Shown here piece by piece: positions 3,448-4,274 of a stretch of DNA of 64,000 nt. Both the position numbers and the translations under genes were made by a program. The stretch is from Escherichia coli (GTDB taxonomy: Bacteria; Pseudomonadota; Gammaproteobacteria; Enterobacterales; Enterobacteriaceae). The notes under the pieces were generated by a model. That model searched no databases. It worked only from the letters and a program-made list of their open reading frames with translations, and was not told the DNA's origin. The stretch lies in the NCBI RefSeq assembly GCF_030013205.1, contig NZ_CP122648.1, one strand, 5' to 3'. Position 1 is the stretch's first letter. Each line of letters begins with the position of its first letter.

Positions 3448-3646
3448 ATTTATTCTCCTGTAAATAAAAAGGACCATCAGCGGCCCCGTAACTGACATTT
3501 TATTAACGTTTGAAGATATGGATATTTATCAGGGTTTACCGTTTTCTGAACCCTGGATATGTTAAGCATTCAGCCGGCCAGTGGTGGGACGCTGGCTCAT
3601 CATAGAGAAAGAGGGATGGCTGATTACCTCTGATCAGGGAAATCAC

Positions 3647-3916
3647 ATGCAGTTTTTACATAAAAGAATGCATTTAAATGCAGGAGATACGGTAGTGGTT
3701 GACTGCTCTCATCAGTGCAATATTTTGCTGATGACAGATACAAACTTTAATAACTACCGCAACGCAAGAAGCTTTCATCATCACGGTGGTGGCGGTTTTT
3801 TTCAGAGATTACCGGCCCACCTTCATGTACCGCATTCAGGTTACTGGAATATTACAATTGATTTAGGAGGCGGAAGTGCAGCTATTCGGCACTCCATTTC
3901 CGTCATCCCAGCATAG
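3647..3916 (+). CDS. Small His/Gly-rich hypothetical protein (DUF1883-like, from memory)
   Basis: 89-aa ORF MQFLHKRMHLNAGDTVVVDCSHQCN…HHHGGGGFF…, AGGGA SD 6 nt upstream; opposite strand to surrounding late genes. Confidence 0.5.
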   Translation: MQFLHKRMHLNAGDTVVVDCSHQCNILLMTDTNFNNYRNARSFHHHGGGGFFQRLPAHLHVPHSGYWNITIDLGGGSAAIRHSISVIPA

Positions 3917-3951
3917 CAACTCGCCTTTAGCCTGAGTAAATGCGTCCTCAA

Positions 3952-3986
3952 GGACGGCAACGAGTCGCAGTTGCGTGCCGTCCTTT
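3952..3986 (+). terminator. Hairpin terminator downstream of the DUF1883-like gene
   Basis: 8-bp stem ggacggca/tgccgtcc with 16-nt loop followed by TTT. Confidence 0.35.
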
Positions 3987-4274
3987 ACACAGCGTGTGCA
4001 GGCAATACCTTCAGAACTTTCATTATGCCGAGCTCATACAATTTCACCATTTTGTTCAACTACAACGCTCATAATTTTCTTACACTTTTTTAATAAACCA
4101 CACCAATAACAACCATCACCGATACCTTTTGTATGCTGTTATTTTGCATTACGGTGTAACGGCAAGAGCCCCCTCCCCGCCCTGAAAGGCTCTGTGTTTT
4201 TGATGTGCGCCTGATGTGGCTCAGATACAAAAAAGCTCGCAGTAGCGAGCTAACAGAAAATATGAAGCATGTTT

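Follow-up and report, generated by a model that had tools for sequence, protein, structure and literature searches.

Lambdoid phages reportedly carry 'morons', which are said to have been described by Juhala et al. in 2000 and to include HK97 gp15, HK022 gp22/gp23 (srb), ES18 gp24/gp25 and lambda bor. In Pseudomonas phage JBD26, the constitutive defence protein Tab is encoded on the opposite strand under its own promoter, whereas anti-Tab, encoded on the late strand, binds and inactivates Tab, and the loss of anti-Tab alone is lethal to the phage or not recoverable (PMC10884400). The DUF1883 domain is known from two further contexts. Fused to a TIR domain, it is listed in a review figure as a predominant bacterial TIR architecture (PMC9153377), whereas the stand-alone DUF1883 protein MrpB of C. 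difficile (87 amino acids, aa) needs the adjacent 81-aa MrpA for cell elongation and altered division; the phenotype is consistent with MinD interference, and MrpB co-purifies with Min and FtsZ proteins (bioRxiv 10.1101/2025.08.20.671228). Here we analyse a stand-alone DUF1883 gene and its surroundings in a stretch of 64,000 nucleotides (nt) of Escherichia coli DNA (RefSeq assembly GCF_030013205.1, contig NZ_CP122648.1), hereafter the window.

Positions 3470-4072 of the window represent a single instance of a plug-in cassette that recurs in enterobacterial lambda-like phages, with DUF1883 as its cargo here. The cassette consists of a constant head, a variable antisense cargo gene and a small convergent gene on the late strand that overlaps the 3' end of the cargo. 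When the DUF1883 gene and its flanks were used as a query, about 80 E. coli genomes matched only the 82 nt upstream of the gene, and these matches precede unrelated opposite-strand genes within lysis cassettes. A segment of about 130 nt (3518-3646) matches 109 records of the phage collection, including HK022, ES18, HK633 and Stx phages; wherever a record was inspected, a small opposite-strand gene starts 5-15 nt after the end of the segment. The genes behind the head include HK022 gp23 ('srb', annotated as 'moron gene product'), flanked by tail genes I and J; ES18 gp25 ('possible moron'), flanked by L and M; SPN3UB gp33; HK633 gp65 and mEp213 gp72, both after the lysis genes; and Stx2-86 gp06 and a gene of phage Evi, both inside lysis cassettes. 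The head was also located at L023:2492-2622, L027:1470-1598, L024:1294-1424 and about 120 IMG/VR loci, and 121 of the 123 instances recovered by a pattern scan of IMG/VR are followed by an open reading frame (ORF) of at least 40 aa starting about 22 nt downstream. Loose clustering sorts these cargo ORFs into 22 families and strict clustering into 30. BLAST with the HK633 version of the head detected it in 223 of 5426 complete E. coli genomes, and it occurs as a single copy in the window.

Among ten other cargo families, Pfam assigned nine to no family and one to an aspartyl-protease-like family: cargo A10 (L155, 154 aa; relatives at L157, L158, L160, L175 and L193) is a retropepsin-like aspartyl protease (Asp_protease_2, E 7e-6). 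The PADLOC collection of defence families likewise gave no match for nine other cargo families and a weak partial match to PDC-S51 for one, with no full-length match.

The anatomy of the head was analysed in an alignment of 78 distinct copies (A3). The copies were gathered with patterns that fix the motifs TCAGCC, GGT.GG and ATGGCTGAT, and the invariance of these motifs is hence no evidence of conservation. On the cargo (plus) strand of the window, the head contains an inverted repeat, CAGGGT-N14-ACCCTG (3530..3555; A3 columns 13-18 and 33-38), which extends to CAGGGTT-N12-AACCCTG in the window and is paired in 80% of the alignment with little covariation; overlapping the expected -35/spacer region, it may be an operator. 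It is followed by a candidate -10 hexamer, TATGTT (3558..3563; A3 columns 41-46), located 84 nt upstream of the DUF1883 ATG and belonging to a TANNNT box of which the T, the A and the final T are invariant in the 78 distinct leaders. The conserved 5' leader (3570..3646) then comprises TCAGCC, hairpin 2 (3576-3582 with 3591-3597, loop GGTGGGAC), hairpin 3 (3610-3614 with 3627-3631, loop GATGGCTGATTA) and the Shine-Dalgarno sequence AGGGA (3636-3640). On the late (minus) strand, just beyond the antisense of the leader and upstream of the holin start, lies an intrinsic-terminator-like hairpin with a T-run (3470..3487; GGGGCCGCTGATGGTCCT TTTTATTT), and an equivalent late-strand terminator lies within 70 nt of the head module in 93 of 117 distinct cassettes.

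Both hairpins covary. Hairpin 2 is paired in 98% of A3 and five of its seven pairs have changed on both sides, for example from U-A to C-G in 13 sequences; its third pair is U.G in 46 copies, C-G in 16 and U-A in 13. Hairpin 3 is paired in 91%, with double changes at three of five pairs and one pair being G.U in 27 sequences. All five whole-structure measures of A3 exceeded all 500 shuffles and all slid controls, and RNAalifold independently recovered hairpin 2. Read on the opposite strand, the frequent U.G and G.U pairs (U.G in 46 of 78 copies at columns 62-79 and 27 G.U at columns 97-118) would turn into A.C mismatches; the structure is therefore that of a cargo-strand RNA, and a late-strand RNA, for instance a small RNA (sRNA) derived from a 3' untranslated region and ending at the terminator, is disfavoured. 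RNAalifold also predicts a helix or pseudoknot between TCAGCC and GGCTGA, and A3 shows it 100% paired, although the search pattern itself had fixed both motifs; in a scan anchored on hairpin 2 alone, 14 variants showed no compensating change and nine of them break a pair, mostly a terminal one. In the copy of a Klebsiella phage (L002:5890-6000) the late-strand terminator and the start of the head are kept, with the leader shortened to one hairpin (GCCAG...CTGGC) and no hairpin 3. Rfam release 15 contains no match at E<=1 to positions 3400-5200, which cover the leader and the 3' region.

The DUF1883 coding sequence in the window (3647..3916, plus strand; WP_001315537.1) runs from an ATG to a TAG and encodes 89 aa. 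An earlier note, made from the sequence alone, had placed the gene at 3581-3990; the ORF is real and, read from the ATG, yields the 89-aa protein of the note, but position 3581 is a GTG that would give a 111-aa protein. The ATG at 3647 is preferred because RefSeq uses it, homologues start with MQFLH and 3581-3646 belongs to the non-coding leader common to unrelated genes. The family named in the note was correct: Pfam PF08980 matches with 92.5 bits against a cut-off of 26 (E 1.6e-26) over profile positions 1-87 of 89, and residues 8-89 match the solved family member Atu1913 of Agrobacterium tumefaciens (PDB 2B1Y) at E 2.9e-8. The AlphaFold2 model, of high confidence (predicted local distance difference test, pLDDT, 92.5), is an all-beta sandwich with one short helix, and the protein is predicted to be a cytoplasmic jelly-roll beta-sandwich devoid of a catalytic motif. 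The residues invariant among the aligned homologues are H5, L10, N25, G49, G50, P56, P62, G65, W67, D72 and G74. The CSHQCN and HHHGGGG stretches to which the note had drawn attention are both present, at residues 20-25 and 45-51, respectively, but do not form a conserved site in the homologue alignment. A metal-binding Cys/His site was rejected on these grounds: C20, H22, C24 and the HHH run are not conserved, relatives having L, S or A at C20 and C24, and the HH..GG stretch is a two-residue insertion seen in Enterobacterales, so that a required metal site is unlikely. The protein lacks a TIR or any other effector domain, its 89 aa comprising DUF1883 only. NCBIfam and PADLOC contain no known defence or named family for DUF1883 or for its partner described below, and PHROGs places both solely in families of 'unknown function'. 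The note's view that the function of DUF1883 is essentially uncharacterized is supported: in the literature searched, five papers mention the domain, and the preprint on MrpB is the only functional study among them.

Full-length copies of DUF1883 are present in 40 of the 5426 complete E. coli genomes and are nearly all at least 99% identical. More broadly, we identified 110 close homologue clusters, all with PF08980, whose proteins stand alone, measure about 87-105 aa and come from Enterobacterales, Pseudomonas, Burkholderia, Mesorhizobium and other bacteria, as well as 1221 DUF1883 clusters at E<=1e-3 in a library of 1.8 billion proteins; 32 genomic DUF1883 loci extend the range to Planctomycetota, Verrucomicrobia, Sumerlaeota and Terriglobia. 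In the window, the ORF is on the strand opposite to every neighbouring phage gene, in agreement with the note on this point and with the ORF map, RefSeq and the intact-looking related prophage of E. coli JCKP02. The gene is likewise found in the phages and prophages of Klebsiella, Citrobacter and Pseudomonas, always against the late genes: Klebsiella phage ST13-OXA48phi12.5 carries it among tail genes, whereas in Citrobacter prophages, in prophages of P. aeruginosa and in phages vB_Pae_U6/U8 it occupies the junction of lysis genes and small terminase. In Mesorhizobium it adjoins an integrase gene, in Burkholderia it lies near genes for a helix-turn-helix regulator and HicAB, and stand-alone copies also occur outside recognizable phages. 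DUF1883 thus shows classical moron behaviour, being a moron-type cargo because it occupies the opposite strand at varying positions of the late operon (Q-holin, tail, lysis-terminase) and is rare among E. coli. One candidate partner, phrog_1924 ('minor tail protein'), is found beside DUF1883 in both Pseudomonas and Citrobacter, but on different sides, and was set aside as a neighbour.

The sequence 3' of the DUF1883 stop codon is conserved among the E. coli, Klebsiella and Citrobacter copies because the minus strand codes there for a 65-aa protein, which we denote p65 (phrog_21096 family, function unknown). The Citrobacter p65, MKILVEHNSKVIWMRD...KDGxQQKIIAALEDALAQAKGELL, matches phrog_21096 at E 5e-41. 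The gene converges on DUF1883 and overlaps its last 40-54 nt. In the window, p65 (3863..4072, minus strand) overlaps the DUF1883 3' end by 54 nt and is interrupted by an in-frame TGA at codon 13 (4036..4034); with the stop read as tryptophan, it still matches the family at E 2.8e-26. The same TGA lesion is found in the JCKP02 prophage and in IMG/VR copies, whereas the Klebsiella phage has a different nonsense codon; in all, four lineages (the window, L002, L230 and L241) carry nonsense codons in p65 with DUF1883 intact.

The hairpin at which the note had seen the gene end (3950..3985, plus strand) is real, positions 3950-3959 pairing with 3976-3985 in a 10-bp stem followed by TACACAGCG, and the Citrobacter and Klebsiella copies retain it through G.U pairs. 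Yet the folding z-score of the region is only -1.8, and the hairpin has no U-tract, was not called by the terminator scan and lies inside the p65 frame, its arms encoding KDG and AVL on the minus strand. The scan called no plus-strand terminator at 3300-4700 of the window or in the Citrobacter and Klebsiella copies, and a canonical intrinsic terminator downstream of DUF1883 was consequently rejected.

The p65 loci were sampled through the presence of DUF1883, and cases of p65 without DUF1883 lie outside the sample. Within it, p65 is present at every enterobacterial DUF1883 locus examined (about 20), and a p65 hidden Markov model (HMM) detected it in the same geometry at 17 of 36 DUF1883 loci overall, including those of P. 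aeruginosa prophages, other Pseudomonas, Burkholderia, Schauerella, Pseudolabrys, Microvirga, a Rhizobiales and a Terriglobia genome. The Pseudomonas and alpha-proteobacterial DUF1883-p65 loci lack the enterobacterial leader. In the databases p65 is rare (14 clusters). Outside the overlap, and with synonymous sites saturated, the ratio of nonsynonymous to synonymous substitution rates (dN/dS) is at most 0.16 for DUF1883 where computable and 0.1-0.35 for p65, and both genes are under purifying selection there. DUF1883-p65 is ancestrally a convergent two-gene module, of which the p65 of the window is a pseudogene. The note's description of DUF1883 as an independently expressed cargo gene therefore needs amendment: its moron-like placement and the leader common to the HK022 and ES18 morons bear the description out, and expression from its own control region is what the sequence suggests, but the gene is not a lone one, being ancestrally half of the p65 module.

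Convergent partners are not peculiar to DUF1883. A convergent late-strand ORF of at least 35 aa lies near or inside the cargo 3' end in 98 of 102 distinct cargos, a count that stands without a random-gene or shuffled baseline, and the overlap is mostly 4-60 nt. Annotated examples are HK022 gp22/gp23, mEp213 gp71/gp72, SPN3UB gp32/gp33 and ES18 gp24 (DUF1327)/gp25. The partners form 35 families. Strictly specific pairs are DUF1883-p65 (7/7 distinct intact cases), A6-DUF1327 (6/6), A8-B5 (5/5) and A10-B7 (3/3), whereas other cargos draw on two common partner families. An apparent single partner family for most cargos proved to be a single-linkage artefact arising from a short common N-terminal stretch; with phmmer and stricter clustering, p65 proves to be confined to DUF1883. 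Since a constant head is combined with partners that differ from one cargo to the next, a link of the partner to the cargo protein is more probable than a role in regulating the head.

To explain these observations as a whole, we tentatively favour, with a confidence somewhat below even, a scenario modelled on Tab/anti-Tab, in which DUF1883 would be a non-enzymatic binding protein that the lysogen expresses for phage exclusion or some related conflict, with p65 as the antidote made late. In the lysogen, DUF1883 would be transcribed from its own promoter in the head, with the structured leader putatively controlling translation, and would act as a stoichiometric binding protein against an infecting phage or a host process used by phages. 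The late-strand terminators at 4251-4234 and 3487-3470 would shield the cassette from transcription that is not antiterminated. After induction, Q-modified polymerase would read through them, run antisense across the cargo and express p65, which, by analogy with Tab/anti-Tab, would neutralize DUF1883 during the lytic cycle of the prophage itself. That p65 has been lost and DUF1883 kept is in keeping with a defective prophage that has been domesticated, as host-driven domestication would yield. A wider extension appears rather doubtful, namely, that the roughly 30 cassette families are defence/self-immunity pairs that can be found through the head, that DUF1883-p65 is an ancient pair also found outside phages and that the DUF1883 domain of TIR proteins might sense p65-like late proteins.

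Several observations weigh against the antidote scenario. p65 is broken even in the complete-looking JCKP02 prophage and in the Klebsiella phage record, whereas in JBD26 the loss of anti-Tab is lethal; either the prophages with broken p65 cannot grow lytically or p65 is not essential as an antidote. p65 is undetectable by HMM at 19 of the 36 DUF1883 loci, and the structural model of the protein, in which three strands are combined with a single long helix, has low confidence values (pLDDT 70; predicted template modelling score 0.36). There is no consensus -35 near TATGTT, and a simple promoter scan missed the site; the window leader, taken by itself, folds no better than shuffled sequences (z -0.17). 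In PADLOC-DB v2, neither DUF1883 nor the 92-aa neighbour nor the holin matched any family at E<=1. Finally, E. coli and Pseudomonas copies of DUF1883 are about 60% identical, which is unusual for an arms-race protein and fits a conserved host target.

The last point leads to the strongest rival explanation, according to which DUF1883 and p65 are an obligate two-protein effector that alters host physiology, for example division or shape, in the manner of MrpA/MrpB, the copy in the window then being inactive. The dependence of MrpB, the only studied DUF1883 protein, on a small adjacent partner and its co-purification with Min and FtsZ proteins speak for such an effector, as do the maintenance of the pair across phyla and the high sequence conservation; moreover, MrpA consists of beta-strands and a C-terminal helix, and the tentative p65 model likewise suggests strands and one long helix. 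However, mrpA and mrpB are co-transcribed, whereas DUF1883 and p65 converge from strands expected to be active in different phases of the phage cycle, and p65 has been lost independently at least four times, in the lineages listed above, with DUF1883 remaining intact and full length. We regard the two-protein effector as unlikely, if slightly less so than the remaining alternatives.

A second rival takes stand-alone DUF1883 to be a phage counter-defence decoy that copies the sensor domain of DUF1883-TIR proteins and titrates their trigger or poisons their assembly. DUF1883 is indeed the N-terminal domain of TIR proteins of the predominant architecture mentioned above, including the longer relatives P0194, P0204 and P0207, whose TIR domains are closest to those of AbTIR, PdTIR and TcpB (E 5e-51 to 1e-43); PADLOC recognizes the TIR part only. 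One such fusion, P0207 (L262:4001-4774), is encoded between hsdS and hsdR of a type I restriction-modification operon, a site typical of defence genes, which suggests that the DUF1883 domain works in conflict systems. In addition, the DUF1883 query matches only positions 11-97 of the 268-position profile phrog_9211. Nevertheless, the phage clade, with CSHQCN, is distinct from the TIR-fused clade, with LSGxAAN, and there has been no recent capture; the opposite strand and the separate control region point to expression in the lysogen rather than early in infection; and a decoy leaves no role for p65 and does not account for the stand-alone copies outside recognizable phages. On balance, a decoy seems very unlikely.

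The possibility that p65 is instead a regulator of the cassette, such as a small repressor of the inverted repeat or the leader, with DUF1883 acting alone, is improbable to a similar degree. The inverted repeat over the promoter region and the invariant hairpin loops would offer possible protein-binding sites, and some p65 homologues are named 'Rrf2 family transcriptional regulator' by NCBI. But this name has no support from Pfam or NCBIfam and was discarded, a regulator of the head should be conserved with the head rather than vary with the cargo across 35 families, and p65 accompanies DUF1883 in the Pseudomonas and alpha-proteobacterial loci that have no leader. Equally improbable is that DUF1883 is, in this genome, merely an inert leftover of prophage decay. 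In favour of such a relic are the defects of the prophage (J fragmented, I truncated, a deletion from lysis to tail genes and, in K_EC180, IS1 nearby), the fact that p65 is already a pseudogene, and the near-identity of the 39 E. coli copies, which differ too little to reveal selection. Against it, nothing is broken in the ORF, the Shine-Dalgarno sequence or the leader, purifying selection on the family is strong and DUF1883 repeatedly outlives p65.

The window starts next to a tRNA-Ser gene by the E. coli hya operon and continues into a defective lambda-like prophage on the minus strand. In late-strand order, the Q antiterminator gene (7648-8319) and small genes of unknown function precede a type II-like DNA methyltransferase gene (5072-6157, minus strand; PADLOC MTase_II, E 3e-152), which is an orphan: it lies between Q and the lysis region and has no restriction enzyme gene in its vicinity. 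Next come a 92-aa late gene of unknown function (4275-4553, minus strand; phrog_2873), the DUF1883 region and a holin gene (3082-3448, minus strand; Phage_holin_8, phrog_198), immediately followed by tail gene I in truncated form and by remains of J and of tail-fibre genes. The holin is 121 aa long, compared with 129 aa in JCKP02, and the end of its gene overlaps the tail gene I fragment; within 859-3498 (minus strand), gene J is broken into several ORFs and the holin ORF is fused to the fragment of I. In JCKP02, the order is Q ... methylase, the 92-aa gene, DUF1883 on the opposite strand, holin, holin, endolysin ... terminase and portal, from which it follows that DUF1883 sits between the Q-proximal genes and the lysis cassette. 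The prophage of the window is a deletion remnant that lacks the stretch running from the lysis genes as far as tail gene I; by comparison with JCKP02, the genes from the endolysin through to tail gene K are missing. The note's placement of the gene inside the late region thus holds for the intact relative, whereas what is left in the window is a remnant. G+C content is 41-44% across the DUF1883 gene and 55-57% in the holin and tail genes, and the low-G+C stretch extends to about position 5100.

Upstream of p65 on the late strand and after the 92-aa gene, the terminator scan identified the intrinsic-terminator-like site at 4234..4251 (minus strand). This strong terminator lies inside a 200-nt non-coding gap (4073-4274) between p65 and the 92-aa gene and is faced by a weak plus-strand hairpin with a T-run (approximately 4166-4205) that has no Rfam match; the layout of the gap resembles the 'convergent sRNA' sites downstream of PR' in prophages of enterohaemorrhagic E. 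coli (PMC4104026). At gathering thresholds, Rfam matches in the whole window were confined to IS009 (555-753, minus strand; 223 bits, full length), within the remnant of a tail-fibre-assembly gene near the prophage end, and the PyrD leader (47358-47431, minus strand; 97.9 bits), which identifies the far part of the window as ordinary chromosome. In K_EC180, the same prophage contains a ParD/ParE toxin-antitoxin pair encoded opposite to the early genes (L001:19518-20080) and an IS1 element inserted between Q and the methyltransferase gene; the latter is apparently not present in the window, as judged from the window ORFs at 6308-7393 only.

Considered alone, the DUF1883 ORF is an already annotated, ordinary moron-type cargo gene in a dead prophage, and it is the surroundings that carry the significance. 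In Rfam and the accessible literature, to which the founding moron papers do not belong, we found no description of a covarying two-hairpin head common to some 30 cargo families, of a near-universal convergent partner or of a DUF1883-p65 pair spanning phyla; the literature on the HK022 srb gene, DUF1327 and the ES18 morons yielded nothing useful. The leader, supported as it is by covariation, would add a new candidate to the cis-regulatory RNAs. Should the logic of Tab/anti-Tab apply, the head would provide a simple sequence handle for new prophage defence proteins and their natural inhibitors in well-studied model phages. Furthermore, the p65 pairing and the TIR fusions lead to the first testable hypotheses on the partner of DUF1883, the time of its expression and its role in conflict.

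Compared with the described systems, the closest relationship by sequence is to PF08980 and 2B1Y, through a full-length profile match; the family as a whole has no assigned function, and the window protein belongs to its phage/mobile-element clade, with CSHQCN and the Enterobacterales HH insertion. With the DUF1883-TIR proteins it has the N-terminal domain in common, but it lacks the TIR domain and falls into a different sub-clade. MrpA/MrpB likewise combine a stand-alone DUF1883 protein with a small adjacent partner protein; their genes, however, lie on the chromosome and are co-transcribed under regulation by CmrT, whereas those of DUF1883 and p65 converge. The lambdoid morons resemble DUF1883 in lying opposite to the late operon, at positions that vary among related phages and with a G+C content below that of the flanks, and in the case of the annotated morons HK022 gp23 and ES18 gp25 the upstream 130 nt or so are homologous to the DUF1883 head; they differ in that the classical definition includes a terminator of their own, none being evident for DUF1883. 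From Tab/anti-Tab, the DUF1883-p65 pair is set apart by the lack of an established sequence relationship and by the location of Tab between the terminase genes of a Mu-like phage; moreover, defence and binding have been demonstrated for Tab, whereas for DUF1883-p65 we infer them by analogy. Nevertheless, the topology of the two systems is the same: an opposite-strand gene with its own promoter, here a candidate one, converges on a small late-strand gene, and the two are conserved as a pair.

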